DNA of 64,000 nt from a bacterium HR28 (GCA_002898255.1 BEIE01000006.1:49251-113250); one strand, 5' to 3'. Shown: positions 26,934 through 55,153, counted from the stretch's first letter. The notes: generated from the letters alone by a model not told the origin. Made by a program: numbers and translations.

Positions 26934-27488
26934 TCACTCAATGCCGTCCGTCGCCGTGGACAAGGTGGCTCGGGAAGATACGTGCTCGCGCTCGAGCAGT
27001 TCCTCGACGAGTCGACGGACGCGCTCGACGGCCAGATCGACCGCCTGCGCGACGCGTTCAGTGAGGCCAATGCTTGCCTCGTCTACCTCGGCTGGTTCGC
27101 AGCCGAGCAGTCTGACAAATGGTGGTAGGACCCCGAGCGCCCGTGCCAGGACGAAGATTTTCCACGGCTCGGCGTAGTGGGTGTCGGCCAGAAAGGCCCG
27201 CCGCTCAGCGTCGGTCCACTCGTCCAGATTGTCGATCTCTGGCTCGAGGAGATAGAGGGTGCCCGGCTCTCCGCCACGTCGAACGGCATCGATCACAATC
27301 AGTGCCTCGTAGCCATCCAGCAGCTCCTGCACTACGGCGATACCACCAGTGCCAGCATCCATCAGCGTGACACCGCGGGGAGGCACTTGCCACTCAGCCA
27401 TAAGCCGCTGAACGACTGCTACTCCAAAACCGTCATCTTGCCGGATGACTGAACCCATCCCAGCGATAAGCACCCGTTTCGAGCTCAT
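26934..27488 (-). CDS. [NiFe]-hydrogenase maturation endopeptidase (HyaD/HupD family)
   Basis: KRVLIAGMGSVIRQDDGFGVAVVQRL...LMDAGTGG...LIVIDAV: canonical layout with conserved Asp and His metal ligands. Confidence 0.85.
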   Translation of the reverse strand: MSSKRVLIAGMGSVIRQDDGFGVAVVQRLMAEWQVPPRGVTLMDAGTGGIAVVQELLDGYEALIVIDAVRRGGEPGTLYLLEPEIDNLDEWTDAERRAFLADTHYAEPWKIFVLARALGVLPPFVRLLGCEPAEVDEASIGLTERVAQAVDLAVERVRRLVEELLEREHVSSRATLSTATDGIE

Positions 27489-28390
27489 GTGTGCACCACC
27501 CGCCGCGGACGGCCGATGATGATCTGCCCATCTTGCACTGCTACTGGCACGACCTCGAGTGATCGGCCGGCGCGATCAAGTCGCCGACCACTGTGCAGGT
27601 CGAACCGGCACCCGTGCCATGGGCAAGTGATAATGCCTTCCTCCCAAGAGATGTCATGTCCCATGCTCAGCGGTAACGGGGTTCCTGGGCAAGCGTTACG
27701 GTAGGCGTAGATGTCGTCACCGCGTCGGACTAGTAACACGGAAAGGCCGCGGGTGTCGATCCGCAGTATCCCAACCTCCGGCACTGTCTCCAGCGAGGCT
27801 ACTGTCTCCCATTCCAGACCCGGTCGCCCCGCGTCCTGGACAGGTACCGACACGCGTCGACGTCCCGGTGGTGCTGGGCGTGGGGCAGGAGAAACCAACT
27901 CGACCTCGAGCCGCTCAAATTCAGGCATGCCCTCGCGGAGCGCCGTCTCCACCACCTGCCGAAGCGTCTGGCCCACGGCAGGGCAACCCGAACAGGCTCC
28001 GCCGAGTTGGATGCGAACCACACCATTCTGCACGCTGAGTACCCGCAGCTCTCCCCCGTGCGAGGCGATGTACGGCTGCACCTCTGCTAAGATCCTGTTG
28101 ACCCTGGCGCGCTGCCCTGCCTCATCGAGTTCGTAGAGCTCCAACAGTAGGCTGACAGCGGGGTCAGCCAGCGTTTCCTGGAAGGCCTGCGGGGCTGCCC
28201 GGTGGAAATGCTGTACTAGCCGTCCGATGCCCACACGGTGGAGCAAGTCAATCAGTTGGAGAAGCCGTAGCGCCTGATCACGCAGTACCGGATCGGGCGC
28301 CGATTCCAAGCTCTGGACGAGCGCGTCGATCTCGGTGAGCGCCTGTTGGAGTCGCCTCGCGATTGTCTCGTCTCGTGGCGCAGTGGCCAT
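27485..28390 (-). CDS. NifU-C-terminal-like / Rieske-like fusion protein (HhyE-like hydrogenase-associated FeS protein)
   Basis: Central NifU-like segment (VQPYIASHGGELRVLSVQNGVVRIQLGGACSGCPAVGQTL) and a C-terminal Rieske-like segment (CPGTPLPL...CPWHGCRFD). This fusion is known next to group 1h/5 hydrogenases. Confidence 0.75.
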   Translation of the reverse strand: MATAPRDETIARRLQQALTEIDALVQSLESAPDPVLRDQALRLLQLIDLLHRVGIGRLVQHFHRAAPQAFQETLADPAVSLLLELYELDEAGQRARVNRILAEVQPYIASHGGELRVLSVQNGVVRIQLGGACSGCPAVGQTLRQVVETALREGMPEFERLEVELVSPAPRPAPPGRRRVSVPVQDAGRPGLEWETVASLETVPEVGILRIDTRGLSVLLVRRGDDIYAYRNACPGTPLPLSMGHDISWEEGIITCPWHGCRFDLHSGRRLDRAGRSLEVVPVAVQDGQIIIGRPRRVVHT

Positions 28391-28420
28391 CGCTCGTAAC
28401 TTTCCGCTCAGACGCCTAGA

Positions 28421-28792
28421 TCAGGCGCCTGGACGATCGGGATGGCTAGGGCACGGCTCACCGGCGTGGGCCGGGTCGTGGCACCAGCATCCAGGGGCGC
28501 ATTCGCCGTGAGCCGGTCGGGTCAGATCGGCGAAGGCATCGCGGAAGCGCACAGCCCCTTCCCGCCTGCCCTGCTCCGTCAGGCGATACCGGCCGTGCTC
28601 ACAGGTCAGGTCACCGCTCGCGACTAGGCGGTCGAGGTGAACCTGGATCAGGTCGACGTCAGAGACAAGAAAGCGTGCCAACTCCGCAGCGTCGACATCC
28701 TCCGCCAGTCCCTCGCCGCACATCCAGTACATCGCCTCCAAGATCTCATCTCTCCAGAAGAGATTGTCGAGCGCGCTCGATCCGCTCGTCAT
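28421..28792 (-). CDS. hydrogenase-locus conserved hypothetical protein with a Cys/His-rich C-terminus
   Basis: 123-aa ORF ending ...HGECAPGCWCHDPAHAGEPCPSHPDRPGA. Tightly packed between hydrogenase accessory genes. Confidence 0.6.
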   Translation of the reverse strand: MTSGSSALDNLFWRDEILEAMYWMCGEGLAEDVDAAELARFLVSDVDLIQVHLDRLVASGDLTCEHGRYRLTEQGRREGAVRFRDAFADLTRPAHGECAPGCWCHDPAHAGEPCPSHPDRPGA

Positions 28793-28803
28793 CGACCTGA
28801 CTC

Positions 28804-29433
28804 CTACGTCTCCGTCGTGGCTAGCACCTGCTGGATCAGTGCGCGGACGCGCCGCTCTGCCTCATCGAGCGCAGCTTCACCAAGCGCGCTGAAGCCGTCT
28901 CCCCAGGACTGGTCGAACGGTTCAATCTCAACGACTATCACCTCGTCTGGCAGCGCACCAAAATGGTCCAGGATCAACAAGAGATTTTCGAGATCAATGA
29001 CGCCCGTGACAGCCTCACTCACCCGGCTCTGCAGCTCGTCCGGAGTAACCATGGGCGGATTCCAGGGCATCACCATAACGCTTCCGGGCGGGCGCCCCCG
29101 CGGCACCGCACCGACGAAGATGCCTCGCGAGAAGCGCGGCACCGCCTGGAGCTGGAATAGCACATCGATCGGGCTGTAACTCAGGTCAGCGATGACCACG
29201 CCCGCGGGCCACTGGTCGCTCTGCAACCGGGTCACCAGCGCTGGACCGAGCGAGAGGTCGCGCAGGTTGGTATAGCCGATCCCCGCCACAAGTACCCGCT
29301 GTTCCCCAGGGGACCGTTGCTGCTCGGTGACATCGCGCTGGTGCTTCGTCCTCGGCTGTAGACGAGCATGGCTCGGCCACAGCCACCCTGATAGTGGATC
29401 GATGATTCGTTCAACCTGATGATGATCCGTCAT
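28804..29433 (-). CDS. second hydrogenase endopeptidase-like protein (divergent HupD paralogue)
   Basis: RVLVAGIGYTNLRDLSLGPALVTRL...VVIADLSYSPIDVLFQL... resembles HyaD/HupD but carries an N-terminal extension of about 45 aa and divergent ligand positions. Confidence 0.65.
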   Translation of the reverse strand: MTDHHQVERIIDPLSGWLWPSHARLQPRTKHQRDVTEQQRSPGEQRVLVAGIGYTNLRDLSLGPALVTRLQSDQWPAGVVIADLSYSPIDVLFQLQAVPRFSRGIFVGAVPRGRPPGSVMVMPWNPPMVTPDELQSRVSEAVTGVIDLENLLLILDHFGALPDEVIVVEIEPFDQSWGDGFSALGEAALDEAERRVRALIQQVLATTET

Positions 29434-29444
29434 CCGGTCGTCCC

Positions 29445-31316
29445 TTATTCCTCCAGGATACAGGCGCAGGTGTTCACCTCACGCACCACGACCCGCTCGC
29501 CTGCAAAGACGTGCGTCGTGCAGGGCATGCAGGGGTCGAAGCTCCGGATTGCGCGCAGAATGTCGATAGCCTTGAAGTCCTCCGGGCTATTGAACTGCTC
29601 GATGATCGGCGTGTTCAGCACTGCCTCCTCGTACGGTCCCGGGTTTCCCCACGGATCACGCGGGGAGGCATTGATGGTCGACGGGGTGATGATCTGGTAG
29701 TTGGTCAGCACCCCGTTGTCCATCGTCAGGTGATGGGTCAGGTAACCGCGACCGGCACCCCAGAAGCCAACGCCGATCCGGAAGTCACGCGGCACAGTGA
29801 AGTCGCGGCTCACCGCCGTGTTGCCTTGCTTCATCAGCTCGTAGCCGATGAGTAGGTTGTTCAGGGCGACCAGAGCCGTGTACGCTTCGGCATACGCCCG
29901 CGCGCGGTTGCGCTCGATCGCGTTCCAGTCGGCTGGAATGTGCCACTCGAGGGTCATCTCGGGCAGGCGTCCCTTGGGTACCAGCATGCGCAGGCTCTGG
30001 CCAGTGGACTCGATGAAGGGGTTCTCCGGGATCTTCTTGGCCGCTGCCGTCGTCCACATGCGCACGTAGACGCCGGCCTCCATGACCGTGCGGTCCCAGC
30101 GCGGTGTGCAGGCCCAGGTGTACTTCTCCTTCCAGCTTCGGCCGGTCGGCTTGGGGCGAGTCTGCTTGTTCCAGGGATGGTAGGGGCTCAGCGGGTTACC
30201 GACCGGATCAGTCTTCAGCGGGTAGTCGTTCCAGTCATCGTAGTAGGAGTGTTCGACGAACTCTTCCAAACCAGCGTTGAGCAGATGGAGATTCGTCGTG
30301 ACGAGCTCGCCGTCGCGGACAACGCCCGGCGTATTCCATCGGCGCTCGCCCCAGTGGTCGGCGTGTCGGTAGTCGGCATCGTACGCCTCGTGGTGATCCC
30401 AGATTCCCGCATCGATCAGGTTCTTCGGACGGGCGCCGACCTGACGGAAGCGTGGCTCGATCTCGTAGAGGAAGTTGAAGACATCGTCCCACAGCAGCGC
30501 CATCTTCTTGGAGTAGTCAAGCAGGTCAAACAGACGCACCTGGTATTCATTGAGGACTCTCATCGAGATCGTTGTGCTGATCCCACCGGGCACAATTGTC
30601 TGCGGGTGGGGGTACTTGCCCCAAACCAGCACCGTCATCTCGCGTGCCTTGCGCGTCATCTCCAGGGCTTCGAGGTAGAGCGAACCAGTCAACGGGTTCA
30701 GCGCCGTCATGATCTCACCGATCGTCTTGAACCCGTGAACATCCGCGTTCGGGGCCAACGCGGTCTGGGCGCGCTCCCAGATCTCCGGGTTCGTCGCGCG
30801 GATCACCGTTTCGGAGTAGTCTGGTCCGGCGAGCAGGAAGAGGTGCAACGGATGGTCGTAGAGGAACTCAGCTGTCTGCCCCAGGTTGCGCACGACGATC
30901 CCCATCGGGGGCGGCGGTGTTCCGAAAGCCATCTCGATCGCCTCGGCTGAGCAGTTCGCGTGCACACCCCCGCACACGCCGCAAGCCCGGCTGCTGATGA
31001 AGATCGCATCGCGCGGATCGCGTCCCTTGAGGATCACCTCGTAGCCGCGGAATAGTGTCGCCATCGAGTGCGCATCGAGGACTTTGCGGTTCTCCAGATC
31101 CACGACGGCATGGAAAGCGAGTGCCCCCGCCACGCGAGTGACCGGATCGATGCTCACCTCGTGAATGTGGCCGTTGCGACGCAAGAGCTCCTCGATCCGC
31201 TCTTGTTGAGTCGCTACGGTCTTGGTCGAAGTGTAGGCATATGGGTCGCGAATATCGCTTCGCAGGCGGGCCCTGCCTGACTCGTCGAACTCGATCGGCA
31301 GATTCTTGAAGCACAT
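29445..31316 (-). CDS. hhyL: [NiFe]-hydrogenase large subunit, group 1h/5-like
   Basis: N-terminal RACGVCGGVH and C-terminal SFDPCMPCTTH Ni-Fe ligand motifs, followed by a short C-terminal extension. All four ligand Cys are ordinary Cys codons. Confidence 0.92.
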   Translation of the reverse strand: MCFKNLPIEFDESGRARLRSDIRDPYAYTSTKTVATQQERIEELLRRNGHIHEVSIDPVTRVAGALAFHAVVDLENRKVLDAHSMATLFRGYEVILKGRDPRDAIFISSRACGVCGGVHANCSAEAIEMAFGTPPPPMGIVVRNLGQTAEFLYDHPLHLFLLAGPDYSETVIRATNPEIWERAQTALAPNADVHGFKTIGEIMTALNPLTGSLYLEALEMTRKAREMTVLVWGKYPHPQTIVPGGISTTISMRVLNEYQVRLFDLLDYSKKMALLWDDVFNFLYEIEPRFRQVGARPKNLIDAGIWDHHEAYDADYRHADHWGERRWNTPGVVRDGELVTTNLHLLNAGLEEFVEHSYYDDWNDYPLKTDPVGNPLSPYHPWNKQTRPKPTGRSWKEKYTWACTPRWDRTVMEAGVYVRMWTTAAAKKIPENPFIESTGQSLRMLVPKGRLPEMTLEWHIPADWNAIERNRARAYAEAYTALVALNNLLIGYELMKQGNTAVSRDFTVPRDFRIGVGFWGAGRGYLTHHLTMDNGVLTNYQIITPSTINASPRDPWGNPGPYEEAVLNTPIIEQFNSPEDFKAIDILRAIRSFDPCMPCTTHVFAGERVVVREVNTCACILEE

Positions 31317-31333
31317 GGCGGGACCTCCTCGCT

Positions 31334-31633
31334 CTAGGTCCTCTCGGTCGCTCTCCCCGTCGTTAGTCGCGCGAGCTGCTCATCGAGCCGCCGCAGCTCA
31401 TTGGCCAGTACCGTGCCAGAGGCCACTATGGACTCAAGACCACGCTGCAGCGGCGGGAGCTGGGCTTGCAGCAGTGAGGTTTGCCGCTCGATTGCGGCGA
31501 CACCCCAGACAATCTTCGAGGCGGTTCCGTGGATACGCTCAAGCGCCTGCCGTATACGACTCAGCGCGTAGGCCAGCACGACGAGGAAGAGCAGGAAAAG
31601 TGCGCTAGAGAGCAGGGTGAGCAGCAGGACCAT
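31334..31633 (-). CDS. small single-pass membrane protein, paralogue 4 of 4
   Basis: 99 aa: an N-terminal hydrophobic helix (MVLLLTLLSSALFLLFLVVLAYAL), then a helical or coiled-coil-like tail. It lies 17 nt upstream of hhyL. Confidence 0.6.
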   Translation of the reverse strand: MVLLLTLLSSALFLLFLVVLAYALSRIRQALERIHGTASKIVWGVAAIERQTSLLQAQLPPLQRGLESIVASGTVLANELRRLDEQLARLTTGRATERT

Positions 31634-31645
31634 CAGTCAACTCCT

Positions 31646-31936
31646 TCAGCTTACGAGCCCCAAGGAACGAAGCTTCACCCCGAGTGAGGCGGCGATACGC
31701 TCGATCTCGGCGACGGCCACGCCGAGTTGATCAGCCGCTGCAACCACTGCCGGCATCGTGGAAAGCGCATGAGCGTGGCGACCGATTCCTTCGATGGAGA
31801 CAAGTGCCTCACGGGCCAGATGATCGATCACCCGCAAGTGCGCGATGACTCGGAGTACCAAGAGTAGAGCAATGATGGTGGTGATGAGAGCCACCAGGAG
31901 CGCCACGATCCAGACAATAACCGCGAGCACGAGCAT
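31646..31936 (-). CDS. small single-pass membrane protein, paralogue 3 of 4
   Basis: 96 aa with the same architecture (MLVLAVIVWIVALLVALITTIIALLLVLRV...). There is a 12-nt gap to the next gene. Confidence 0.6.
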   Translation of the reverse strand: MLVLAVIVWIVALLVALITTIIALLLVLRVIAHLRVIDHLAREALVSIEGIGRHAHALSTMPAVVAAADQLGVAVAEIERIAASLGVKLRSLGLVS

Positions 31937-31947
31937 TGTTCAACTCC

Positions 31948-32250
31948 TCAGGCAACCTGCGAGCGCTCAACCACCTCAGGCGCACCGACGGGTGCAGCCC
32001 CAAGATGCTCGGCCGTCCGATCGAGTGATTCCGCCACTGCTGTCAGATCTTTGTGGACTCGCTCGAGCTGGACGTTCAGGTCGGTCGTTGCGGTTTCTAC
32101 AGCTCGCATGAGCGTGGCAATCTGAGCAAACGTTCCACCGATTCTGCGGAGGTAAAAGAGAATAGTCAGCAGCGCTACGGTCAGGACCAGCACCAGGACG
32201 ACAGCGTAGACAGCGGTGATCACAGCCAGGACGCGAACGAGCGTTTCCAT
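31948..32250 (-). CDS. small single-pass membrane protein, paralogue 2 of 4
   Basis: 100 aa with the same architecture (VLAVITAVYAVVLVLVLTVALLTILFYLRRI...). There is an 11-nt gap to the next gene. Confidence 0.6.
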   Translation of the reverse strand: METLVRVLAVITAVYAVVLVLVLTVALLTILFYLRRIGGTFAQIATLMRAVETATTDLNVQLERVHKDLTAVAESLDRTAEHLGAAPVGAPEVVERSQVA

Positions 32251-32259
32251 AGTCCCTCC

Positions 32260-32550
32260 TCAGCGCTGCTGTGCCCGCTCCAGCCGCTCGTTGAGCGTGC
32301 GGGCGGCCTCAGCGATCGCGTCGAGCCGGTTGAGAATCCGAGTTGCGACCTGGTTTGTCTGAGCGAGCAGGGGGATGCTTGTCGTGTTCGCTGCAATCCC
32401 CTTACCGGCCTGCCAGATAGCCGCGGCGTGCCGGTCGATCCGCTCGACTGCTCGCCAAATGGCGATGAGCAGGATCGCGACAACGAGTACCACGACCAGC
32501 GCGATCGCCAGGACGAGCCACCAGAAAGCGGTTACGGTCATCTCCGGCAT
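32260..32550 (-). CDS. small single-pass membrane protein, paralogue 1 of 4
   Basis: About 96 aa counted from ATG 32548-32550 (MPEMTVTAFWWLVLAIALVVVLVVAILLIAIWRAV...). The ORF-track start at 32574 is a TTG. Lies immediately downstream of hhyS. Confidence 0.6.
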   Translation of the reverse strand: MPEMTVTAFWWLVLAIALVVVLVVAILLIAIWRAVERIDRHAAAIWQAGKGIAANTTSIPLLAQTNQVATRILNRLDAIAEAARTLNERLERAQQR

Positions 32551-32579
32551 CACGATCCCCTCTCGAGTTACCAAGTGCC

Positions 32580-33806
32580 CTATTCAGGCTTTGCTGATGA
32601 GCCACGCCAGCGCAGCCGGTTGTAGAAAAACTCCACAGTTCGCTCGATGATCGGCACGTCGTACTCAGCGCCCCAACCGCTCGGGATCGCTCGCTGACGG
32701 TCCCAGCGCGTCTCACGGTTGCGGTCGCGCTGGGTGATACGGCGCAGCGGGCGGATGAACGAACCATTGAGTCGTGAGACTGTGCTTGAGAGGGTTGATC
32801 CTGGAGGGGCCTTATAGAACGGCGAGAACTTGTCCGGGAAACCGGGCATGGTGCAGCCGATGCAGGGTCCCCCGACATTCATGCAGCCACCGAGGCCGTT
32901 GATGGCCCCGCGACTGGTGATGTTGCAGTTGACGACTGGTCCCCAACAGCCGATCTCGACCAGGCACTCCGGGTCGCCGTAATGCTCAGCGAAGACACCT
33001 TCCTCGTAGTATCCGGCGCGGGTGCACTGCCGGTGCACCGTCTCGCCGAAGAGCCAGGCTGGACGGCCCAACTCGTCGAACTCTGGCACCGGGCCGAGGC
33101 CTTGCAGGAAGAGGAGCACTGCGGCCACAGTCTCGGTGAAGTTATCGCCCACCGGAGCGCAGCCGGGGATGTTGATGACCGGCAGGCCGAGTGCACTGCG
33201 GTAGTCGCGACCCAGGAAGTCCATCACACTCATCGCTCCGGTGGCGTTGTGGTAGGCGGACGGGATCCCACCCCAGGTCGCGCAGGTACCGATCGCGATA
33301 ACCGCGGCCGCACCGGGTGCCAGCCGCTTCAACCAAACTGCGGATGGTACTTGCTTGAATTGGCCGGTCTGCTCATCGAACTCCTCACCGACAGCCGACC
33401 AGTATCCTTCACCGGCTCGTGTTTCGTCCGGCACCGAGCCCTCGTAGACGATCACATAAGGGGCACCGAGCGTACCCTCGAGCGCCCGCTGCATCGGCTC
33501 GACGAAGGGGTCACCAGACTCCACATTGACCGCTGAGTGATGGAGCAAGATCTGGGGCAGGCCAGGTAACGACCCCATAAGGAGATCTTCGACCCGTGGC
33601 GCTACCGCGCCCAGCACAGAGATGGTGCACCCGTCGCAGCTCATCCCAGCGAGCCAGAAGACGTGGACGTGGGTATACGGGCCAAGCAGGCTGTCGCGTC
33701 CCAGTTGTTCCCGGGCGAGGCGCTGGATCTCCTCGGTCGTCGCCCCGGCGACGTTACCGACCATGCCAAGCTTCGGACGCACCTTCGGCTTCACGTCGAT
33801 GGCCAT
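32580..33806 (-). CDS. hhyS: [NiFe]-hydrogenase small subunit, group 1h/5-like (no Tat signal)
   Basis: FWLAGMSCDGCTIS, GTCATWGGIP, IPGCAP, and a distal cluster region (CWGPVVNCN...GGPCIGCTMPGFPD). The N-terminus lacks an RRxF motif. RBS AAGGAG is present. Confidence 0.92.
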   Translation of the reverse strand: MAIDVKPKVRPKLGMVGNVAGATTEEIQRLAREQLGRDSLLGPYTHVHVFWLAGMSCDGCTISVLGAVAPRVEDLLMGSLPGLPQILLHHSAVNVESGDPFVEPMQRALEGTLGAPYVIVYEGSVPDETRAGEGYWSAVGEEFDEQTGQFKQVPSAVWLKRLAPGAAAVIAIGTCATWGGIPSAYHNATGAMSVMDFLGRDYRSALGLPVINIPGCAPVGDNFTETVAAVLLFLQGLGPVPEFDELGRPAWLFGETVHRQCTRAGYYEEGVFAEHYGDPECLVEIGCWGPVVNCNITSRGAINGLGGCMNVGGPCIGCTMPGFPDKFSPFYKAPPGSTLSSTVSRLNGSFIRPLRRITQRDRNRETRWDRQRAIPSGWGAEYDVPIIERTVEFFYNRLRWRGSSAKPE

Positions 33807-34611
33807 TGTGAGTCTCCTTCTTCAGCAGGGTTCTGCCATTCTCTAGGATGTGCTCTGTCAGTTTTGCGATCGCGCGCACCGCTGGTGCAGTCGGCATGTA
33901 GTCGAGGAGCGCGCGGCCGAGTCGGTCGGCTTCCTGAACCGCCTCGTCGAAGGGGATCGATCCGATCACGCTCACGTCGAGGCGAGCGCAATAGTCGCGG
34001 ATCGCAGCTTCATCCTCTGGTGATCGCACCTTGTTGGCCACGACACCGATGCACCCAATACCGAGCTCGCGGGCGAGGGGCACAATCCGGCCGAGGGTCT
34101 CCAGTGCCCGGAAGTACGGTTCGACTACGACGAGCAGCATATCGACGTGACGCACAGTTCCCCGGCTCAGATGCTCGATCGAAGCCTCCATATCGAGAAT
34201 GGTGACGTCCTCGGGACGGAGCGTGCCGAGTTCGGCTACCACGCCGCGCACGGCGGCGTGCTGCCCACACAGTCAGCCGCGGCCGGCGCCGAGCAGGCCA
34301 GTCATTGCCAAGACGCGGACACCGTCCGGGCCGATCACACCGTAGCGCGTGATAATCTCCTCGAACGGGCAGATCAGATGGAGGGAGGCGTGACCATCAC
34401 TGTCCACTCGTTCCTCGAGGATCTCCTCGCGCGGCACCCGCCGGAGCTGCTCGATCTGCTCCGTGGACAGACCAAGTGCCCGCGCGAGGTTCGGGTTCGG
34501 GTCGTCGTCCAGGGCGTTAACCGAGTACCCGCGCTGTGCGGCCAGCCGAGCCATCGTCGCAGCGAGCGTCGTCTTCCCAGCTCCGCCTTTGCCCGCGACG
34601 GCAATCCGCAT
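33754..34611 (-). CDS. CooC/MinD-type P-loop ATPase (Ni-insertion-factor-like), candidate selenoprotein (in-frame TGA at 34273-34275)
   Basis: ATG 34609-34611 follows GGAGG. MRIAVAGKGGAGKTTLAA (deviant Walker A) ...LLGAGRG-TGA-LCGQHAAVRGVV...ILDMEASIEHLSRGTVRHVDMLLVVVEP... The two track ORFs (34273..34668 and 33754..34251) are in the same frame and together rebuild one CooC-like protein. The TGA aligns with the first Cys of the CooC C-x-C metal motif (I recall GGSQCYCRENSF in C. hydrogenoformans CooC1). The 3' end overlaps hhyS by 53 nt. Confidence 0.65.
34240..34260 (-). promoter_or_regulatory. SECIS-like hairpin downstream of the in-frame UGA
   Basis: mRNA sense CACGCCGC-CGUGC-GCGGCGUG: an 8-bp perfect stem with a 5-nt loop, starting 12 nt after the UGA. 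Confidence 0.5.
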
Positions 34612-35379: not shown

Positions 35380-37179
35380 TTACTCACTGCTGAGCGCAGT
35401 CTTCCTAACCTGTTCGGGGTCGCCCTTCCACCACATCCACGTTCCAGGCTCACCATCGAGGACGATTTCGGCCCCCGGCTCCAGTTCCCCAGCGAGCAAT
35501 GCGCGGGCAATTGGGTCCAGCACTTCACGATCGATGAGTCGCCGGAGTGGGCGCGCACCGAGCTCGCGGTCGTGCCCGGCGCGCGCGAGAGCGCTGCGGG
35601 CGCTTGGGGACAGACGTACCCTGACTCCCCAGAGACTGAGGCGCTGCTGCGCCCGCTCGAGCTGGAGGTCGACGATTTGCTCCATCGCCTCAAGGGAAAG
35701 TGGAGCGAAGAGGACGATATCGTCCAGGCGGTTGAGTAACTCGGGGCGAAAGAGTCGGCGAGCGTAGGAGAGGAACACTTCCGGCGCTCGTTCACCGGCT
35801 CCGATTGCTTCCTGAGATCCGGCGTTGGAAGTAAGCACAATCAGTGTGTTGTGAAAGTCGACCGTACGGCCATATCCGTCGGTGAGGCGGCCGTCCTCGA
35901 GGATCTGGAGCAGAAGGTTCAGTACATCGGGATGTGCTTTCTCGGCTTCGTCGAAGAGGACCACCGAGAAGGGGCGTCGCAAGACCGGATCGGTCAACTG
36001 GCCTGGCAGCCCGAAGCCAACGTATCCAGGTGGAGCACCAATCAAGCGGGCTACGGCGTGCCGCTCCATGTATTCACTCATATCTATGCGGATCAGCGAC
36101 TCTTCGTCGCCGAAGAGAAACTCGGCGAGGGCTCGAGCGAGCTCGGTTTTCCCGACACCGGTTGGACCGATAAAGAGGAACGAGCCGAGCGGACGGCGTG
36201 GGTCACCGAGGCCGGTGCGTGCCCGCCGGAGGGCTCTGGCGACGGCGCGGATCGCTGGTTCCTGGCCGACCACACGCCTGGCAAGAGCACTTTCGATCTC
36301 CAGCCAGTGACGTTCGCCACCGGAGCCGGGGGAGAGCATGTCCAATCCGCTGAGCGGTAACCCTGTGCGCAGCGCAACTGCCTCAAGTAGGCGGTTGCGC
36401 CCCACTACCGTCTCGCCATCGAGGTGTGCCAGCGCGGCTGCATGATCGAGGATCTGGAGGGCGCTGCCGGGTAGCACGTGTGCGCGCAGAAAGCGCTGGG
36501 CCAGTTGAATGGCCAGGCGCAGCGCTTCAGGCGCGAATTCCACTTGATGGTGCGCTTGCAACCGTGGCAGGTGAGCCCGTAACACGGCCTCGCAGGCTGC
36601 CTCGTCCCAGGCTGGCATCTCGATGACCTGGACCAGCATGTCCCAATTAGGAATGGACTGCGTGAGGCGTGCTGCCTGTTCGGGGGTGAGTGGCAGGACG
36701 ATTCCTCCCGCATTCAGGAGTGCGCGAAGGGCGATGTTGCCAGAGGTCGCGTCACTGTTGCTCAGACCGAGCAACTCGGCCCCTTCGAGGACGACGACCA
36801 GGCGGCCAGACCCGGCAGCAATCTCTCGGCTAAGCTGCTCTGCACGTTGCTCGAGTTCGCCACGGTAACGGGCACCGGAGACGAGACGGGCGACATCAAT
36901 CCAGAAGACCTGGTAATTGAGGAGCTCGGCTGGGGCATCACGGTGCGCGATCGCTTGGGCCAGCGCTCGCAGCGCGCTGCGTCTGCCGGAGCCAGGAGGT
37001 CCGACCAACGCGACGTTCCCTTTGAACGTGCTGCGGAGTGCGGCCGTGAGGCGCCTGGTCAGCTCGTGCCGTTGGACGAGAGGTTGTGGCTGAGCGAGCA
37101 ATGCTCTGGTGAGATCGTAGCCGTAACGGGCGAGTTCATTCCAGCGTGCCCAACCAGACCCATTCCCTCTTCGCACCAT
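35380..37179 (-). CDS. Clp/Hsp100-family AAA+ ATPase with a degenerate first nucleotide-binding domain
   Basis: D2 is canonical (FLFIGPTGVGKTELARALA, VVLFDEAEKAHPDV, sensor/arginine GARPLRR). D1 has GPPGSGRRS in place of GxxGxGK[ST] and VVVLEGAE in place of hhhhDE. No ClpN or M-domain is evident. Its ATG abuts the stop of the upstream gene (TGAATG). Confidence 0.85.
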   Translation of the reverse strand: MVRRGNGSGWARWNELARYGYDLTRALLAQPQPLVQRHELTRRLTAALRSTFKGNVALVGPPGSGRRSALRALAQAIAHRDAPAELLNYQVFWIDVARLVSGARYRGELEQRAEQLSREIAAGSGRLVVVLEGAELLGLSNSDATSGNIALRALLNAGGIVLPLTPEQAARLTQSIPNWDMLVQVIEMPAWDEAACEAVLRAHLPRLQAHHQVEFAPEALRLAIQLAQRFLRAHVLPGSALQILDHAAALAHLDGETVVGRNRLLEAVALRTGLPLSGLDMLSPGSGGERHWLEIESALARRVVGQEPAIRAVARALRRARTGLGDPRRPLGSFLFIGPTGVGKTELARALAEFLFGDEESLIRIDMSEYMERHAVARLIGAPPGYVGFGLPGQLTDPVLRRPFSVVLFDEAEKAHPDVLNLLLQILEDGRLTDGYGRTVDFHNTLIVLTSNAGSQEAIGAGERAPEVFLSYARRLFRPELLNRLDDIVLFAPLSLEAMEQIVDLQLERAQQRLSLWGVRVRLSPSARSALARAGHDRELGARPLRRLIDREVLDPIARALLAGELEPGAEIVLDGEPGTWMWWKGDPEQVRKTALSSE

Positions 37180-37602
37180 TCACGGGCCTACCTCGAACTC
37201 GAACCGTGCCTCGGAGCCCTCCGGCATGAGCATGACGATTGCTACCCAGTCACCGGGCATCGGAAATTTGATGACGCCAGTCCACTTCCCTGGGCCCTCG
37301 TAGTGCAAGGCCACTTCTGGATGGCCCATTGGCATCTCGGGCATATCGACGGTGAGGTGCGGCTCGACCTCGGTTGCCTCGACTGGCTTCCCACCTCGCG
37401 TGATCGTCACCATCAGTGACGTCCCTCTACCGCTCTTCGGCGGGTTGGGATCGAGTTGTAAGGTTACCTCGTACTCTCCGATACGCTGCGGCGCGGCCTT
37501 AAACTGCTCAGCCTCCACCCGACAGGCGGCTGTGGACAGGACTACCAGAGTCGGGAACAGCACGCTCCCGACCACCACGGAGACGACCCACCTCGACGTC
37601 AT
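37180..37602 (-). CDS. YtkA/FixH-like domain lipoprotein with a Met/His-rich site
   Basis: Signal plus lipobox (VVLSTAAC), then a beta-sandwich-like domain (YEVTLQLDPNPPKSGRGTSLMVTI...DMPEMPMGHPEV...GKWTGVIKFPMPGDW). Confidence 0.7.
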   Translation of the reverse strand: MTSRWVVSVVVGSVLFPTLVVLSTAACRVEAEQFKAAPQRIGEYEVTLQLDPNPPKSGRGTSLMVTITRGGKPVEATEVEPHLTVDMPEMPMGHPEVALHYEGPGKWTGVIKFPMPGDWVAIVMLMPEGSEARFEFEVGP

Positions 37603-37616
37603 CGCGCTTCCGCCGC

Positions 37617-38033
37617 CTATGGACGGAAGAGACCCATGTCGACGCCAAAGAGAAACAGCACCGGCATCACGATCTGCATCATCACAAAGTAGGTGAGGGC
37701 CGCAGTGAAGAGGCTCACCTTGAACGCTTGCCTCGCCAACCGCTGGGCGACTGCTCCAGGGAGCCCGCTGACCCGCCGCCGCATAAGCAGCCAGGTCATC
37801 CCAAGAGTCAGCACAAGGCCGATGAGGACAAGAATTGGTCGCAAGCCAACCGGCGAGATCTTATCGAGTGCGAAGAGTGCCGCGTTCAAACCGGCTGCCC
37901 AGGTGGCAACTGCCACCAGCCCAACGCTTCAGCAGAGGCTTGCTGTTGTGCCACCAATGAGACCAGCGGCGATAGGGGCACGCCATTCGTCGGCTGCTTC
38001 GGACATAGCCATCGGGCGGGTATCTGCGATCAT
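37617..38033 (-). CDS. MerT/MerF-like membrane protein B, candidate selenoprotein (in-frame TGA at 37929-37931)
   Basis: ATG 38031-38033 follows GGAGGG. MIADTRPMAMSEAADEWRAPIAAGLIGGTTASLC-TGA-SVGLVAVATWAAGLNAALFAL..., continuing in frame into the 99-aa track ORF. The C-U pair sits in the first TM helix, where MerT and MerF carry a vicinal CC (recalled MerF IGTTLVALCCFTPVLVILLG). Confidence 0.6.
37902..37917 (-). promoter_or_regulatory. SECIS-like hairpin downstream of the in-frame UGA
   Basis: mRNA sense GGUGGC-AGUU-GCCACC: a 6-bp perfect stem with a 4-nt loop, starting 11 nt after the UGA. Confidence 0.5.
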
Positions 38034-38042
38034 GCTTCCCTC

Positions 38043-38486
38043 CTATCCCCCCAGTCGCGGGTACTGGAAGCCGATAAGGTTCAGGATGGCCGACACCACG
38101 ACCATGTAGGTCATGTAGCCGGCTAGCGCCCAAGCTGAGAGGCGAAAGAGCGTGCGCCGGAAGACGTCGCGGTACTGTGCTGGAGGTAGCTCGCGGCGGT
38201 ACCCCCGGGTGAGCCAGCGAGCTAGCCCGAGGATGAGTAGGATCGCAAAGAGCGTGGAGAGTAGGGTGATTCCCTGCATGTTAGCCCAGGTGCGCATGAA
38301 GGTGACCGCGCCGACGGCACCGATCAGCGTGGCGACAACTGCCGCCAGCCCGCCACCTCAGCAGACAGCGGCAAGAACGCCACCACCAACAGCGCAGGCC
38401 TTACCTGTGAAGGTAACCTGGGGCTCTTCGAGCGCTTGAGCCTGCGGAGCAGGCATCGGCTGCGCATGCGCCTGCGGTTCAGCCAT
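38043..38486 (-). CDS. MerT/MerF-like membrane protein A, candidate selenoprotein (in-frame TGA at 38358-38360)
   Basis: ATG 38484-38486 follows GGAGG. MAEPQAHAQPMPAPQAQALEEPQVTFTGKACAVGGGVLAAVC-TGA-GGGLAAVVATLIGAVGAVTF, then in frame into the 84-aa track ORF (MRTWANMQGITLL...). Same architecture as protein B. Confidence 0.6.
38330..38347 (-). promoter_or_regulatory. SECIS-like hairpin downstream of the in-frame UGA
   Basis: mRNA sense UGGCGGC-AGUU-GUCGCCA: a 7-bp stem including one G.U pair, which would be a C.A mismatch in the antisense RNA. 4-nt loop, starting 10 nt after the UGA. Confidence 0.5.
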
Positions 38487-39014
38487 AGCCGCTAGCCTCC
38501 TTTCAACTCCGCCGGGTGTTATTATCATGCTAATACTCAAATACCGTTCTGTCAAGGCTAGTCCGACTGAGGCGTGCCCGATTCGTGTCTAAGGTATGTG
38601 AGGGCCGGGATTCCGGGAGGCTGAGGGGGTGCGCCAGTACCTCGATGGTTCTCCTGATCTCAAGAGAACGAGCCGCAGAGTCCTGGTGCGCGTTGGCCGA
38701 ACTCGGTTTGTCCCATTGTGGAGATGAGGCTCGGACGAGGATGCTGACGGCGCATCCTGTTCTACCTCCCTGCACCCGGAGCTACCGAGAGGAAGCACGG
38801 AGTGGCTCCCCTGAACGAGCTGGCTGACCTCTTCTGACTACAGCTGCTGGGGTTGGTCGCACACTCAACGGGATCCTGGCGCGGGTACCCAGAGTGAAGT
38901 CGGAGTAGATCCCCGCGTACCGGCGAGCGGTTAGCGATGCGGATGCGGAAGGCGGCAGCAGGCCTAGGGGCAATGCCGAACCCGATCAATCGTCGAAATG
39001 GTCGTCAAAAAGCG

Positions 39015-39040: not shown

Positions 39041-39059
39041 TTTCTTTGCTCTGTTGCGG

Positions 39060-39132
<73 letters not shown>

Positions 39133-39718: not shown

Positions 39719-40171
39719 TTAGACGGAACCTCCGGCTGTCGACGCGCGCCCGGAACGCGTTCGCCACAGGAGCCGTGCTCGGTACGCGAGTGAGGAGGTG
39801 AGGAGCACAATGCCGAGCACGCCGAGGAAGGGCTGGATAGGCGCGAACCACTGCAGTGCCCCGCTGCTACCCAGGAGCAGCAAGACCAGCTTATTGCACG
39901 TGGGGCAGCCAACGGCAAAGTAGGTGGCAATGGTGCCAGCGGCGAGCCGGCGTTCCGGAAGTGGGCAGGCGGTGGGCCAGGCGTAGGTGGCAGCCAGCGC
40001 CGCGGCCAGCGCCACTGTGACACCAAAGACAAGATAGTCGACCGTGTCGGGTGGCGTCATCCGCCCGAAGATCGGGTTCGGGACGAGGGCAGTGGGTACA
40101 CCGATGACCAGCACCGTCAAAGCAGCACCGAGGATCGCGTAGAGTACGACGCGTATGACATTTGGCTGCAC
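39719..40171 (-). CDS. polytopic membrane protein with an intramembrane CPxC motif
   Basis: 150-aa ORF with 4 hydrophobic segments and a YFAVGCPTCNKLVLLLLGSSGAL motif. Family not recognised. Confidence 0.6.
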   Translation of the reverse strand: MQPNVIRVVLYAILGAALTVLVIGVPTALVPNPIFGRMTPPDTVDYLVFGVTVALAAALAATYAWPTACPLPERRLAAGTIATYFAVGCPTCNKLVLLLLGSSGALQWFAPIQPFLGVLGIVLLTSSLAYRARLLWRTRSGRASTAGGSV

Positions 40172-40247: not shown

Positions 40248-41588
40248 ATGGTTGGAGGGAGGAGGGCGGTGGCTGTTCGGTGGACGGAGGCGCTAGCTGC
40301 CTTGCGCTTCCGTGACTTCCGCCTGCTCTGGGCCGGGCAATTTGTCTCCATGCTTGGCACGCAGATGCAGACAGTCGCTCTGAGCTGGCTCGTGTATGAG
40401 CTGACTGGCTCGCCGGCGCAGCTGGGTGGCATGGCGCTGGCGCGCGCGATTCCGACGATCAGCCTCTCCCTGTTCGGCGGGACGCTGGCCGACCAAGTGG
40501 ATCGCCGCAGGCTTCTCCTGGTGACACAGACGTTCGCAGCGGCGTTGTTGGCTGGCCTTGCCGTCTGCGTGAGCCTCGGATGGACGGCGTTGCCATTGCT
40601 CTACACCTTTGCGTTCGCCTCTGCAGCCGCAATGGCGTTCGATGCACCCGCCCGGCAGGCGTTGATTCCTGCGTTAGTTCCGCGCGAGCGCTTGGCGAAT
40701 GCCTTGACACTGAACGTGCTCGCCTGGGATGTGGCGGCGGTCGCTGGACCTGCACTTGGTGGCCTCGTGATCGCGCGGCTGGGAGTGTCGGCAGCGTTCT
40801 GGGCCGATGCACTGAGTTATCTTGCGGTGGTGGCTGCCCTGCTGCTGATGCGGCGGGACATTCCGACTCCACAGCCGGAGCGGCGTGGTTGGGAAGCATT
40901 TACCGATGGCCTCGCCTTCGTGCGGCGACGGCCCGTCCTCTGGCAACTCATGCTGCTCGACTTCTTCGCTGTTGTTCTGGCATCTGCGACGGGGCTCCTG
41001 CCAGTTTTTGCCCGAGACGTGCTGGGAGTGGGACCGGAAGGCCTCGGCCTCTTGTTTGCCGCGCCGAGCATCGGTGCCATTGCGGGAGCAGCTCTCTTTG
41101 CGTTCCTCTCGATGCCGAAGCATCCAGGGCGAGTGGTGGTTTGGGTGGTTGTGGGGTACGGCGCGTCCCTTGCCTTCTTCGGAGTGAGCCGCTCGTTCTG
41201 GCTCTCCCTCACGCTGCTCGCTCTCTCTGGTGGGCTCGATGCCGTGAGTATGGCGCTACGGCATACAATGCGACAGCTCGCGACGCCAGATGCCTATCGT
41301 GGGCGGGTCGGTGCACTCGCCTCAGTCTTTGCTGCTGGTGGGCCACGCCTGGGTCAGTTCCAAGCTGGTCTTCTTGCCAGCGTTGTGGGGCCTGCGGGTG
41401 CGATGGTGTTGGGTGGGATTGGGTGTGTCATGGTCGCGCTGGCGACTCGCTGGTGGGCGCTCGACTTGTGGCGATACCGCGGTGAGGAACTCACTGAGGT
41501 GCATCCCGCGAGAACGCACGGTGAACGCGGCAGCGCTCCGACAGGCATGAGATCAGGAACGCTGTCCGATTTGGGAAGAAAGTCCTAG
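40248..41588 (+). CDS. MFS transporter (EntS/MFS_3-like)
   Basis: About 12 TM segments. The N-terminal FRDFRLLWAGQFVSMLGTQMQ is typical of this MFS subgroup. Confidence 0.85.
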   Translation: MVGGRRAVAVRWTEALAALRFRDFRLLWAGQFVSMLGTQMQTVALSWLVYELTGSPAQLGGMALARAIPTISLSLFGGTLADQVDRRRLLLVTQTFAAALLAGLAVCVSLGWTALPLLYTFAFASAAAMAFDAPARQALIPALVPRERLANALTLNVLAWDVAAVAGPALGGLVIARLGVSAAFWADALSYLAVVAALLLMRRDIPTPQPERRGWEAFTDGLAFVRRRPVLWQLMLLDFFAVVLASATGLLPVFARDVLGVGPEGLGLLFAAPSIGAIAGAALFAFLSMPKHPGRVVVWVVVGYGASLAFFGVSRSFWLSLTLLALSGGLDAVSMALRHTMRQLATPDAYRGRVGALASVFAAGGPRLGQFQAGLLASVVGPAGAMVLGGIGCVMVALATRWWALDLWRYRGEELTEVHPARTHGERGSAPTGMRSGTLSDLGRKS

Positions 41589-50900: not shown

Positions 50901-51337
50901 GCGGACGCTAGGTGCGGCGGGTAGGATCACCGCCTCATTGTGTGATTCTCGCTGTGTTGCGCGCCAGCGCTGGTGACGACCGGTATCGTCAGGCACTGTG
51001 TCGCACGCGGGAAGAGGAAGATTCGACGCGAGACACTGAGAGGGCTAGTACACTTATGCGTCCCCACCCTGCGCCTTGAGACGCTGACCTCCTCCGATCC
51101 GGTGATCTTACCCTCCGAACGGAGGGTGAGAAGACCACTGATCGGACTGTTTCCCACTTGGCGCCTGCCTGTTACACTCCTCTGGTGAGAAGAGGAACCC
51201 AGTAACACAGTTGTGGCCGAGCCCTGAAGGTGACGTGCGCCTCTGGCACGCTGGCCGATCATATGTCGGCCCGGCTGGTGGCTGCGCTCGGGAGCGCGAG
51301 GAAACGGCGATCGATCCGGAACGAAAGGAGCCGAACG

Positions 51338-52213
51338 ATGATTCCGGGGCCATTCCGGTACCGCAGGGTTCGCTCCGTGGACGAGGCTGTTGCACTGCTC
51401 TCCCAACTGGGAACCGACGCGAAGGTTTTGAGTGGGGGGCAGAGTTTGATCCCGATGATGAAGTTTCGGCTTGCTGAGCCGAGCTATCTTATTGACATCA
51501 ATCCGATTCCTGGGCTCGACTTCATTGAGGAGCGCGACGGGATGCTCCGTCTCGGCGCGCTGGTTCGGGAGTCCACGCTTGAGCGCTCGTCGCTCGTGCG
51601 TCAACGCTATCCCATCCTGCATGACACGGCTGAGGTGATCGCGGACCCGCTTGTCCGCAATCTGGCGACAGTCGGCGGTAACTTGGCCCATGGCGATCCA
51701 GCGAATGATCATCCGGCAACGATGCTCGCACTGCGCGCGCAGGTGGTCGCGCGCGGACCGAACGGAGAGCGTGTCATCCCGATCGATGACTTCTTCGTTG
51801 ACACGTTCGTGACAGCGCTGCAACCGGACGAGCTCCTAACGGAGATTCGCATCCCGGCCCCACCGCCGCGATCGGGCGGAGCGTACCTCAAGTTTGAGCG
51901 CAAGGTCGGAGACTATGCGATCGCCGCAGCAGCGGTGTTCCTCGCGCTTGACGAGGCTAGGCGGATCACACAGGCCGGCATCGGGCTCACAAATCTGGCT
52001 TACAAGCCGTTGCGAGCAGTTGATGCAGAGCGTGCGCTGCTTGGCCAGCAACCAAGTGAGGAACTCTTCCGACATGCCGCGGAACTCGCGGCCCAGGCGA
52101 CCGATCCAGTCAGCGACTTGCGCGGGCCAGCGGACTATAAGCGTGCAGTTGCTCGGACGATGACGCTGCGCGCATTGCGCCGGGCTCTGGAACGCGCTCA
52201 GGCGAATGCCTGA
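51338..52213 (+). CDS. coxM: aerobic CO dehydrogenase medium (FAD-binding) subunit
   Basis: ATG 51338 follows AAAGGAG. MIPGPFRYRRVRSVDEAVALL...LSGGQSLIPMMKFR is an FAD_binding_5 domain. Gene order is M-S-L. Confidence 0.9.
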   Translation: MIPGPFRYRRVRSVDEAVALLSQLGTDAKVLSGGQSLIPMMKFRLAEPSYLIDINPIPGLDFIEERDGMLRLGALVRESTLERSSLVRQRYPILHDTAEVIADPLVRNLATVGGNLAHGDPANDHPATMLALRAQVVARGPNGERVIPIDDFFVDTFVTALQPDELLTEIRIPAPPPRSGGAYLKFERKVGDYAIAAAAVFLALDEARRITQAGIGLTNLAYKPLRAVDAERALLGQQPSEELFRHAAELAAQATDPVSDLRGPADYKRAVARTMTLRALRRALERAQANA

Positions 52214-52225
52214 AAGGGGGAAAAG

Positions 52226-52726
52226 GTGGAAACGTTGCCGATCCAGGTAACAGTGAATAGCCGTACCTATACTGCCGAGGTCGAGCCTCGGTTGCTGCTC
52301 GTGCACTTCCTGCGCGACGTGCTGAATCTGACCGGAACGCACATCGGTTGCGATACGACGAGTTGCGGCGCTTGCACGGTGCTCTGGAACGGTCGGCCGG
52401 TAAAGTCTTGCACGGTCTTCGCGGTGCAGGTTGACGGTGGCGAAATCCTCACCGTCGAGGGTTTGGAGCGCGACGGACAGTTGCATCCGGTGCAAGAGGG
52501 CTTCTGGGAAGAGCATGGGCTGCAGTGTGGCTTCTGCACGCCCGGGATGATGATGACCGCTGTCGCACTACTCAACGAGAATCCGGATCCAACGGAAGAA
52601 GAGATCCGCAAGGCCATTTCCGGCAATCTCTGTCGGTGTACCGGGTACGTCAACATCGTCAAAGCCATCCAGTATGCAGCCCGGAAGCTGCGCGAGGGCG
52701 CGACCGTCCATGTGGGAGGAGCGTGA
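52226..52726 (+). CDS. coxS: aerobic CO dehydrogenase small ([2Fe-2S]) subunit
   Basis: Has [11 protein letters not shown] and [11 protein letters not shown] cluster motifs. Confidence 0.92.
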
Positions 52727-52730
52727 AGCA

Positions 52731-55076: not shown

Positions 55077-55083
55077 GACCGAA

Positions 55084-55115: not shown

Positions 55116-55153
55116 GCTGTCCACCTTTGGTGGCGAGCGAGTAGCAGTGTGCG

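Follow-up and report, generated by a model that had tools for sequence, protein, structure and literature searches.

Two predicted Cys-selenocysteine membrane proteins, a YtkA-family lipoprotein and a Clp-like ATPase encoded beside a group-1h [NiFe]-hydrogenase cluster

This analysis concerns a four-gene operon on the minus strand of a 64-kb stretch of DNA (64,000 nucleotides, nt) from the bacterium HR28 (BEIE01000006.1:49251-113250), referred to in the following as the window; positions are counted from its first letter. The operon encodes two small paralogous membrane proteins with an in-frame UGA each, a lipoprotein of the YtkA family and an ATPase of the Hsp100/Clp type, and it adjoins a gene cluster for a [NiFe]-hydrogenase. 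The names MemA and MemB for the membrane proteins and ClpL for the ATPase were coined for the proteins of this operon. A described system of the same composition was not found in the literature searched. The operon comprises the following features:

38527..38555, minus strand: promoter-like site TTGACA-17-TAGCAT
38043..38486, minus strand: memA, 147 codons, three-helix membrane protein with the motif K-A-C-x10-C-U-G-G-G (Cys31, Cys42 and, as predicted selenocysteine (Sec), Sec43)
38358..38360, minus strand: in-frame UGA of memA, predicted Sec codon, context ..VLAAVC*GGGLAAVV
38331..38346, minus strand: hairpin GGCGGC-AGUU-GUCGCC in memA, resembling a selenocysteine insertion sequence (SECIS), beginning 12 nt past the UGA
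37617..38033, minus strand: memB, 138 codons, paralogue of memA with the motif ..ASLC-U-SVG..
37929..37931, minus strand: in-frame UGA of memB, predicted Sec codon, context ..TASLC*SVGLVAVA
37902..37917, minus strand: SECIS-like hairpin GGUGGC-AGUU-GCCACC in memB, beginning 12 nt past the UGA
37180..37602, minus strand: gene of the YtkA-family (CtaK-like) lipoprotein, with a Pfam YtkA match
35380..37179, minus strand: clpL, encoding an Hsp100/Clp class-I-like ATPase of 599 amino acids (aa) with the domains AAA_2, AAA_lid_9 and ClpB_D2-small

The operon and its proteins

The gene calls agree with the earlier note on this DNA, which had described four tightly coupled minus-strand genes with intergenic gaps of 9, 14 and 0 nt (TGAATG). 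The promoter-like site precedes the memA start codon by about 40 nt and was recognized solely by its match to the consensus (10 of 12 positions). Since a strong terminator at 39040-39015 closes the upstream tRNA-Lys gene, it is probable that the operon has a promoter of its own, and no convincing terminator was found within it.

MemA and MemB share 31% identity over 108 aa (E 2e-6) and possess three membrane helices each, so that they are indeed the paralogous membrane proteins that had been supposed. Conserved elements of MemB are the loop FALDxxSPxGxRP and the helix YFVxMQxVxP. In the 22 aligned members of the family a CU or CC pair stands at the start of helix 1, and it is near-invariant (C34 in all sequences, C/U35 in 21 of the 22). 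The pair is preceded by a disordered N-tail of 25-40 residues. The Arg-rich loop between helices 2 and 3 (RRRVSGLPGAVAQRLARQ, TRGYRRELPPAQYRDVFRR) is free of Cys in all aligned members, and conserved methionines are found at the outer face (NMQG in MemA; MQxVxP and xMG in MemB). With the N-in, C-out topology that the positive-inside rule predicts, the CU pair would lie where helix 1 begins on the cytoplasmic side. In an AlphaFold model of MemA the helix is interrupted at the CC motif, but the confidence of this model (predicted local distance difference test, pLDDT, of 67.5, and below 50 around CC) does not suffice for a search by fold.

A membership of both proteins in the MerT/MerF family of mercury transporters had to be given up. 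Only MemB from the window matches the Pfam family MerT (PF02411; E 1.2e-3), with 19.3 bits against a cut-off of 32.9 bits, and the other 21 of the 22 aligned members gave no match at E 0.1 or better. The NCBIfam model MerTP_fusion gave 18.9 bits (cut-off 180), and hhalign of the family against a MerT alignment resulted in a probability of 0.3%, this MerT alignment being thin (three sequences, one of them without N-terminus). A tblastn search with MemB against plasmids with more than 4000 merT genes returned no merT match, and MerF was not found by the family profile among the PDB sequences. The second, cytoplasmic Cys pair that is typical of MerT in the loop between helices 2 and 3 is absent in all aligned members, and neither MerA nor MerP is encoded in any locus. 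The NCBIfam family NF045683, a heavy-metal transport selenoprotein of the MerT/CopZ-fusion type, matches neither MemA nor MemB, and it matches the HMA protein described below weakly.

Because the sequence similarity to MerT is not significant, the analogy to the Mer proteins that we retain rests on motif, size, architecture and operon layout. MerT, MerF and MerC are likewise small proteins with two to four membrane helices and a vicinal Cys-Cys or Cys-Sec at helix 1, and the LEPYRP loop after helix 1 of MerT is resembled by the FALDxxSPxGxRP loop. As in mer operons, there is an extracytoplasmic metal-binding partner and, in some loci, a divergent MerR-type regulator. In contrast to mer operons, the system comprises two paralogous subunits, it lacks MerP, MerA and the second cytoplasmic Cys pair, an Hsp100-like ATPase is its obligatory neighbour, and it resides in a hydrogenase cluster. 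MerT-family selenoproteins of the CU type have already been described (Haft, preprint 10.1101/2022.07.06.499078; 'putative mercuric transport protein' in PMC9312934), so there is a precedent for the Cys-Sec chemistry.

A separate observation concerns an annotated 'MerT family protein' on the Salinibacter ruber plasmid pSR60 (locus L017, 1393-2289), which starts past its CC motif. The frame runs upstream through a stop (..GAAVAA*ACCTIPL..), and the next gene is annotated as 'GDCCVxC domain-containing (seleno)protein'. This may be a mis-started or recoded gene of the Mer type.

The third protein was correctly recognized as an exported YtkA-like lipoprotein. It matches Pfam YtkA (PF13115) with E 2e-12 and 48 bits (cut-off 25.9 bits) and possesses a signal peptide followed by Cys (..LSTAAC). 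The lipobox in the window is the variant STAAC, the homologues have the canonical lipoboxes LAAC or LAGC, and the lipobox Cys is the only Cys of the protein. As to the supposed soft-metal site DMPEMPMGH, the Met part (DMPxMxM) is conserved in the homologues but the His is not. The YtkA/CtaK family has been implicated in copper trafficking. CtaK (YtkA) and the YtkA domain of YcnJ from Bacillus subtilis belong to the same Pfam family and are implicated in passing copper to membrane proteins, and there as here the protein is an extracytoplasmic lipoprotein tethered to the membrane. However, CtaK serves the assembly of the CuA centre of cytochrome oxidase, whereas the partner here would be MemA-MemB-ClpL, and the conserved site of the lipoprotein from the operon consists of Met only.

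The assignment of the fourth protein to Hsp100/Clp is also upheld by the Pfam matches (AAA_2 with 5.6e-59, ClpB_D2-small and AAA_lid_9). ClpL aligns to ClpA and ClpB across both AAA modules (D1 and D2), with 83 bits for D1 and 342 bits for D2 against ClpB from T. thermophilus, and its scores with the NCBIfam equivalogs stay far below the cut-offs (486 vs 1232 bits for ClpB, 402 vs 993 bits for ClpA). Two AAA+ modules and a D1 pore loop are common to ClpL and ClpB, ClpA and ClpC. D2 is about 50% identical to that of ClpB in the motifs, with Walker A and B, the sensor motifs, the GYVG pore loop and the D2-small domain, and it is canonical (GVGKTE, FDEAEKAH, GAPPGYVGF). Unlike class I Hsp100 proteins, ClpL begins at the D1 core and has neither an N-domain nor the coiled-coil insert known as M-domain. 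It also lacks a conserved ClpP-docking IGF/L loop (the tripeptide IGA is not conserved among the aligned copies), its D1 Walker motifs are degenerate, and its gene is encoded together with those of membrane proteins.

In the window, Walker A, Walker B and the pore loop of D1 read GSGRRS, LEGAE and ARYRGE. Among the aligned copies Walker A is GSG(R/K)RS, with the Lys position alternating between K and R even in close relatives and with Thr/Ser replaced by Arg in seven of the eight copies, while L016 retains GVGKTA. Walker B is LEG, LED or LDG, the Glu being missing, and the pore loop is A(R/K)YRGE in all but one of the eight (ASVRGQ in L016). An N-terminal motif GW.RW..L.RYG.DLT occurs in most copies (GW in 6/8), L003 and L016 being divergent, and a search with the N-terminal 303 aa of ClpL gave at least four matches. 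The idea of a two-ring AAA+ protein is thus correct with regard to the two modules, but owing to the degenerate Walker motifs of D1 probably only one of them is a motor. With its canonical D2 and two preserved pore loops, ClpL could plausibly thread a substrate, and from its motifs it looks like a one-motor threading machine.

Predicted selenocysteine codons in memA and memB

Both memA and memB contain one single in-frame TGA, located right behind a Cys codon. Cys-TGA and reading frame are kept in all Thermomicrobiaceae-like loci, and in at least 12 distinct loci a conserved frame runs through the TGA. The genes of distant homologues have no such interruption and encode Cys-Cys in the same columns (..SVCCGGG.., ..VGCCS[IV]G..), so that the Cys-UGA pair aligns with a vicinal Cys-Cys. 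The CC-bearing members of the family are P0016, P0018-23 and P0060-76 as well as the loci L011, L013, L015 and L016; MemA homologues with CC are P0016, P0018, P0019, P0021, P0023, P0060 and others. On the DNA level, the UGA of memA is replaced by TGC (Cys) in L014, L011, L013, L015 and L016, and that of memB by TGC in L011 and L013 and by CGA (Arg) only in the decayed locus L001. L014, a close relative, combines a MemA with CC and a MemB with CU.

Upstream of the TGA, substitutions at the third codon position dominate over those at the two other positions (245 vs 99 and 79 in memA, 266 vs 130 and 83 in memB), so this part of the frame is under coding selection. The hairpin that follows the TGA has a stem of 6 bp, in which 97.2% of the cells are paired over 18 distinct sequences. 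Two of the base pairs display compensatory changes, from CG to UA (seven sequences) and from GC to AU (one sequence), besides wobbles from GC to GU, and the loop is AGUU, or GGUC in L003 and L021. As the stem doubles as coding sequence, and the -3 register pairs equally well, though without covariation, the hairpin is a support and falls short of a proof.

The homologues of MemB from the Sec clade are all present in the databases as open reading frames (ORFs) of about 100 aa that start just past the TGA, and those of MemA mostly have 82-101 aa. This truncation at the same place shows that gene callers cut all copies at the TGA. In the operon, TGA also serves as an ordinary stop, namely at the end of the YtkA gene. 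For Thermomicrobium roseum DSM 5159, selA and a Sec-containing formate dehydrogenase are listed (supplement of PMC6776052). Within the window there is no selA, selB, selC or selD, tRNA-Lys is the only tRNA, and an Rfam scan of the window detected nothing but this tRNA.

Taking both TGAs as true stops, with the flanking segments being separate small genes or pseudogene fragments, agrees with the way in which gene callers split memA and memB in every database. We regard this as hardly credible and rejected it in view of the covarying hairpin and of the coding selection upstream of the TGA. Moreover, the frame continues across the TGA in locus after locus, the Cys-Cys homologues run without interruption, the genus possesses selA and a Sec-containing enzyme, and the one copy that is truly decayed (L001, see below) looks quite different. 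It is therefore very likely, as judged from the comparison of the sequences, that the UGA codons of memA and memB encode selenocysteine.

Distribution and the hydrogenase neighbourhood

The MemA/MemB family is very rare. Three loci were present in 185,579 species-representative genomes (two metagenome-assembled genomes (MAGs) of Thermomicrobiaceae and one contig binned as Rubrobacter) and ten in the JGI metagenome collection. A profile search among 1.84 billion representatives found 21 proteins, none of them MerT-like; the profile used for this library had 98 positions and had lost the N-terminal CC columns, so that it covered only helices 1-3 downstream of CC. A 717-kb metagenomic contig and UniRef proteins labelled Thermomicrobium roseum show 98-100% identity to the window, and the proteins are annotated as truncated hypothetical proteins. 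The neighbourhoods of all loci were mapped by tblastn and display these gene orders:

MemA-MemB-YtkA-ClpL: window, L003, L006, L007, L008, L019-L023
YtkA-ClpL-MemA-MemB, with CU in both Mem proteins: L024, L025
MemA(CC)-MemB(CC)-ClpL, without YtkA: L011, L013, L015
MemA-MemB with convergent ClpL: L016

Hence the four-gene set recurs in other genomes, as had been expected, although in two different orders. Since several loci carry the module without YtkA, its core consists of MemA, MemB and ClpL, with YtkA as an accessory of particular clades.

A decayed copy of the module is located at 9552-12190 of L001/L010 (contig c_000000160603, MAG 'uncultured Thermomicrobiaceae'). There, memA has acquired a stop and a frameshift, memB carries CGA for TGA and is fused to clpL by a deletion, the YtkA gene is deleted and clpL is fragmented. 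The gene of a CooC-like protein and the genes of both hydrogenase subunits are cleanly deleted as well, and the hyp genes remain. This joint loss of module and hydrogenase is a single case.

The regulators vary between the loci and are of the XRE, MerR or PadR type. Only L003, L006 and L021 possess a divergent regulator of the MerR family, which in L003 and L006 is arranged like merR and merT, has a Cys-rich C-terminus and is about equally similar to ZntR, CueR, MerR and CadR. L015 differs by a Met/His-rich extracytoplasmic tail of MemB and a CopZ-like HMA protein encoded downstream of clpL.

We also observed a glutaredoxin-like protein of 74 aa encoded directly 3' of clpL in L003 (12648-12872) and L021 (12708-12929). 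It scores above the NCBIfam cut-off for 'Uxx-star glutaredoxin-like (seleno)protein', here in the Cys form (..GCTV-stop), and a relative of its gene lies between hypE and hypF in L001.

The dominant context of the module, which was absent from the earlier note, is a [NiFe]-hydrogenase cluster. The module is located in or next to such a cluster in the window, L003/L021, L008, L020, L011, L015, L025 and L026, and there is no counter-example among the loci with enough flanking sequence. In the window, the neighbourhood of the operon consists of:

26934..33806, minus strand: cluster of a group-1h [NiFe]-hydrogenase, whose large subunit scores 524 bits against HofG from R. eutropha (5AA5) and about 175 bits against other groups
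33754..34611, minus strand: CooC-like P-loop ATPase, first gene of the hydrogenase operon, with an in-frame TGA at 34273-34275 (GAGRG*LCGQ)

The cluster encodes the small subunit, four single-helix coiled-coil paralogues, the large subunit, a protease-like protein of 209 aa, a Cys/His-rich protein of 123 aa, a NifU-Rieske protein and HycI. In L011, the module is located between hypFCDE/DUF6390 on the one side and hypC, three CooC-like genes, NifU and HycI on the other.

The TGA of the CooC-like gene is shared by L003 and L006 and has a hairpin downstream. Because the Cys homologues possess CxC at this site (GCIC in L015; GCTC and GCPC in L011), the protein from the window would be UxC in place of CxC. 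With this motif, the CooC-like ATPase looks like a third candidate selenoprotein, of an unannotated UxC type. The CxC motif of CooC binds nickel.

No HypA or HypB was detected by Pfam family or tblastn in any locus, a weak negative, given flanks of at most 20 kb and E. coli sequences as the tblastn queries. In contrast, the hhy cluster of T. roseum DSM 5159 includes hypA and hypB, with RNase Y beside hhyS, and no copy of the module attributable to this strain was present in the species-representative scan. The known systems of nickel insertion, HypA/HypB/SlyD and CooC/CooT/CooJ, are also encoded inside the maturation cluster of the enzyme and also comprise a P-loop NTPase with a Cys motif, as the U/CxC protein adjoining the module does; unlike the module, they do not include membrane Cys/Sec proteins or an Hsp100 ATPase.

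Two further observations were made within the hydrogenase cluster. Between the genes of the small and the large subunit (31334-32574, minus strand) lie the four tandem paralogous ORFs of about 100 aa, each with an N-terminal membrane helix followed by a coiled-coil-like segment. Five comparable small ORFs are present between the subunit genes in L003 and four elsewhere in the cluster of L015. These paralogues could be membrane tethers of the hydrogenase. The conserved protein of 123 aa (28421-28792, minus strand) has a C-terminal Cys/His-rich stretch, HGECAPGCWCHDPAHAGEPCPSHP, and no family match; it is possibly a metal-binding accessory factor.

Possible functions of the module

Adjacency to hydrogenase genes and the joint decay in L001 lead us to propose, tentatively and as the best of several readings, that the module traffics a thiophilic metal as part of the maturation of the neighbouring group-1h [NiFe]-hydrogenase. 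MemA and MemB, which we assume to form a hetero-oligomer of three-helix subunits, would each present a vicinal Cys-Sec (Cys-Cys elsewhere) at the cytoplasmic start of helix 1. The metal might be captured outside by the Met site of the YtkA-like lipoprotein or, in lineages without YtkA, by the Met/His-rich tail of MemB. It would then cross the membrane by ligand exchange, as from MerP to MerT, reach the Cys-Sec site and be handed over to a cytoplasmic acceptor, which may be the U/CxC CooC-like ATPase, the CopZ-like HMA protein or the glutaredoxin-like protein. The D2 motor of ClpL may pull at the disordered N-tails of MemA and MemB and thereby free a tightly bound metal, or ClpL may keep the apo-hydrogenase held or partly unfolded while the metal is inserted. 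ATP-driven AAA+ partners of metal-centre assembly are known in CoxD (Mo-Cu carbon monoxide (CO) dehydrogenase), NorQ/NorD and the Mg and Co chelatases. However, these are single-ring ATPases of the MoxR type with VWA partners, whereas ClpL is a double ring of the Hsp100 type with membrane partners.

Concerning the metal, we consider nickel as the preferred candidate and Cu(I) as the main alternative, the context favouring the former and the domain content the latter. Nickel is suggested by the context of hydrogenase maturation, the U/CxC CooC-like neighbour, the lack of HypA/HypB at the loci and the contrast to strain DSM 5159. In a nickel version, the module and the CooC-like ATPase would replace HypA and HypB. 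Clues to Cu(I) are the YtkA/CtaK family, the DMPxMxM site, the Met/His tail and HMA protein of L015, the Cys-rich MerR and the outer-face methionines. Of the earlier notion of a device for soft metals or selenium, the soft-metal part agrees with features of other loci (Cys-rich MerR, CopZ-like HMA, MemB tail). The import of selenium or another chalcogen is unlikely, because the core system occurs with Cys-Cys, in the same architecture, in other lineages.

Several points weigh against the proposed metal relay and its nickel version. Outer sites consisting of Met only, together with YtkA and HMA, favour Cu(I)/Ag(I) over Ni(II), and to our knowledge no metal importer requires an Hsp100 ATPase. 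The contacts between MemA and MemB and between the Mem proteins and ClpL are assumptions, the similarity to MerT is not significant, and the MemA model is of low confidence near the CC motif. Furthermore, the absence of HypA/HypB was judged only from the limited flanks and the E. coli queries mentioned above, and the sole RNA-seq study covers T. roseum DSM 5159, whose hhy cluster is without the module.

A bolder version, which we consider doubtful, is that MemA/MemB, ClpL and the CooC-like ATPase constitute a HypA/HypB-independent route by which nickel or another thiophilic metal reaches hydrogenases of group 1h that oxidize atmospheric H2. Here, an Hsp100 unfoldase would be mechanically coupled to a membrane Cys-Sec relay; it would either draw the helix or tail that carries the metal into the cytoplasm or open the apo-enzyme so that the metal can be inserted. 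If true, this would amount to a novel mode of metal movement or insertion.

The same domain content might belong to a Mer- or Cop-like device for resistance to, or homeostasis of, Cu(I), Ag(I) or Hg(II), without any role in hydrogenase maturation; in our view this is unlikely. The metal would move in either direction between the outer Met site of YtkA and the cytoplasmic Cys-Sec, for sequestration or for hand-off to a chaperone, for instance in order to shield Fe-S and Ni enzymes from copper, and the hydrogenase neighbourhood would be protective or coincidental. In addition to the features that point to Cu(I), among them the affiliation of YtkA to a copper family, the conserved DMPxMxM site and the CopZ-like HMA protein, the divergent ZntR/CueR/MerR-like regulator stands to the module as merR to merT, MerT selenoproteins of the CU type have a precedent, and a form-I Mo-Cu CO dehydrogenase, which needs cytoplasmic copper, lies 14 kb away in the window. 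On the other hand, no locus contains MerA, CopA or any other efflux or reductase partner, and the regulator differs from locus to locus. The adjacency to the hydrogenase survives in distant lineages and through rearrangements, the module of L001 decays along with the loss of hydrogenase genes, and cox genes close to the module occur in the window alone.

ClpL could also be the principal component, acting as an unfoldase for the assembly or quality control of a membrane-associated group-1h hydrogenase, with MemA and MemB as anchor or adaptor and the Cys-Sec site as a redox or metal sensor or docking site off any transport path. Enzymes of group 1h lack a cytochrome b anchor, and AAA+ chaperones such as CoxD and NorQ assist other insertions of metal cofactors. 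Consistent with this, ClpL is always encoded beside MemA-MemB and is devoid of the N-domain to which adaptors usually bind, and the cluster contains the four single-helix coiled-coil proteins. But such a role would leave the Met-site lipoprotein, the Met/His-rich outer tail, the HMA partner and above all the near-invariant vicinal Cys-Sec pair unexplained, and we judge it to be quite improbable.

A transmembrane thiol/selenol redox relay comparable to DsbD/CcdA or to the GCUG site of thioredoxin reductase, which would carry reducing equivalents outward from a cytoplasmic glutaredoxin-like protein, appears very improbable to us. The CUG of MemA resembles the redox-active GCUG of thioredoxin reductase, and the Uxx-star protein encoded 3' of clpL in L003 and L021 would suit such a relay. 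However, there is no extracytoplasmic Cys acceptor, as YtkA possesses the lipobox Cys alone, neither MemA nor MemB carries another Cys at its outer side, and an ATPase would be an unexpected partner.

Hydrogenases of group 1h drive the global soil sink for atmospheric H2, and how they mature is understood only in part. An accessory module conserved in their clusters would add new players to the biology of hydrogenases and of metal trafficking. The module would provide two selenoprotein families that lack annotation (three with the CooC-like ATPase), together with an ATPase partner of the Hsp100 type. A membrane-embedded vicinal Cys-Sec is a rare chemical motif and could serve the high-affinity capture of soft metals. 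The analysis also exposes a systematic mis-annotation, as all Sec-clade copies of MemA and MemB in the databases are truncated 'hypothetical proteins'.

Outside the operon and the hydrogenase cluster, the window contains the following features:

39058-39132: tRNA-Lys
39719-40171: membrane protein of 150 aa with the motif GCPTCN (CPTC)
40248-41588: MFS_3 transporter
51230-56170, plus strand: coxM, coxS and coxL of the form-I Mo-Cu CO dehydrogenase, with the active-site motif AYRCSFR, followed by an XdhC/CoxI-YHS fusion

A functional link between the module and the Mo-Cu CO dehydrogenase was dropped, since their proximity of about 14 kb is not conserved in other loci. The tRNA-Lys, the CPTC membrane protein and the MFS_3 transporter have no match in the 9.5 kb upstream of memA in L020, which is 98-100% identical to the window. 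The latter two were therefore rejected as parts of the module, and the tRNA-Lys may mark a boundary of a rearrangement or insertion. In L015, a gene of the MFS_3 type is oriented divergently from memA.

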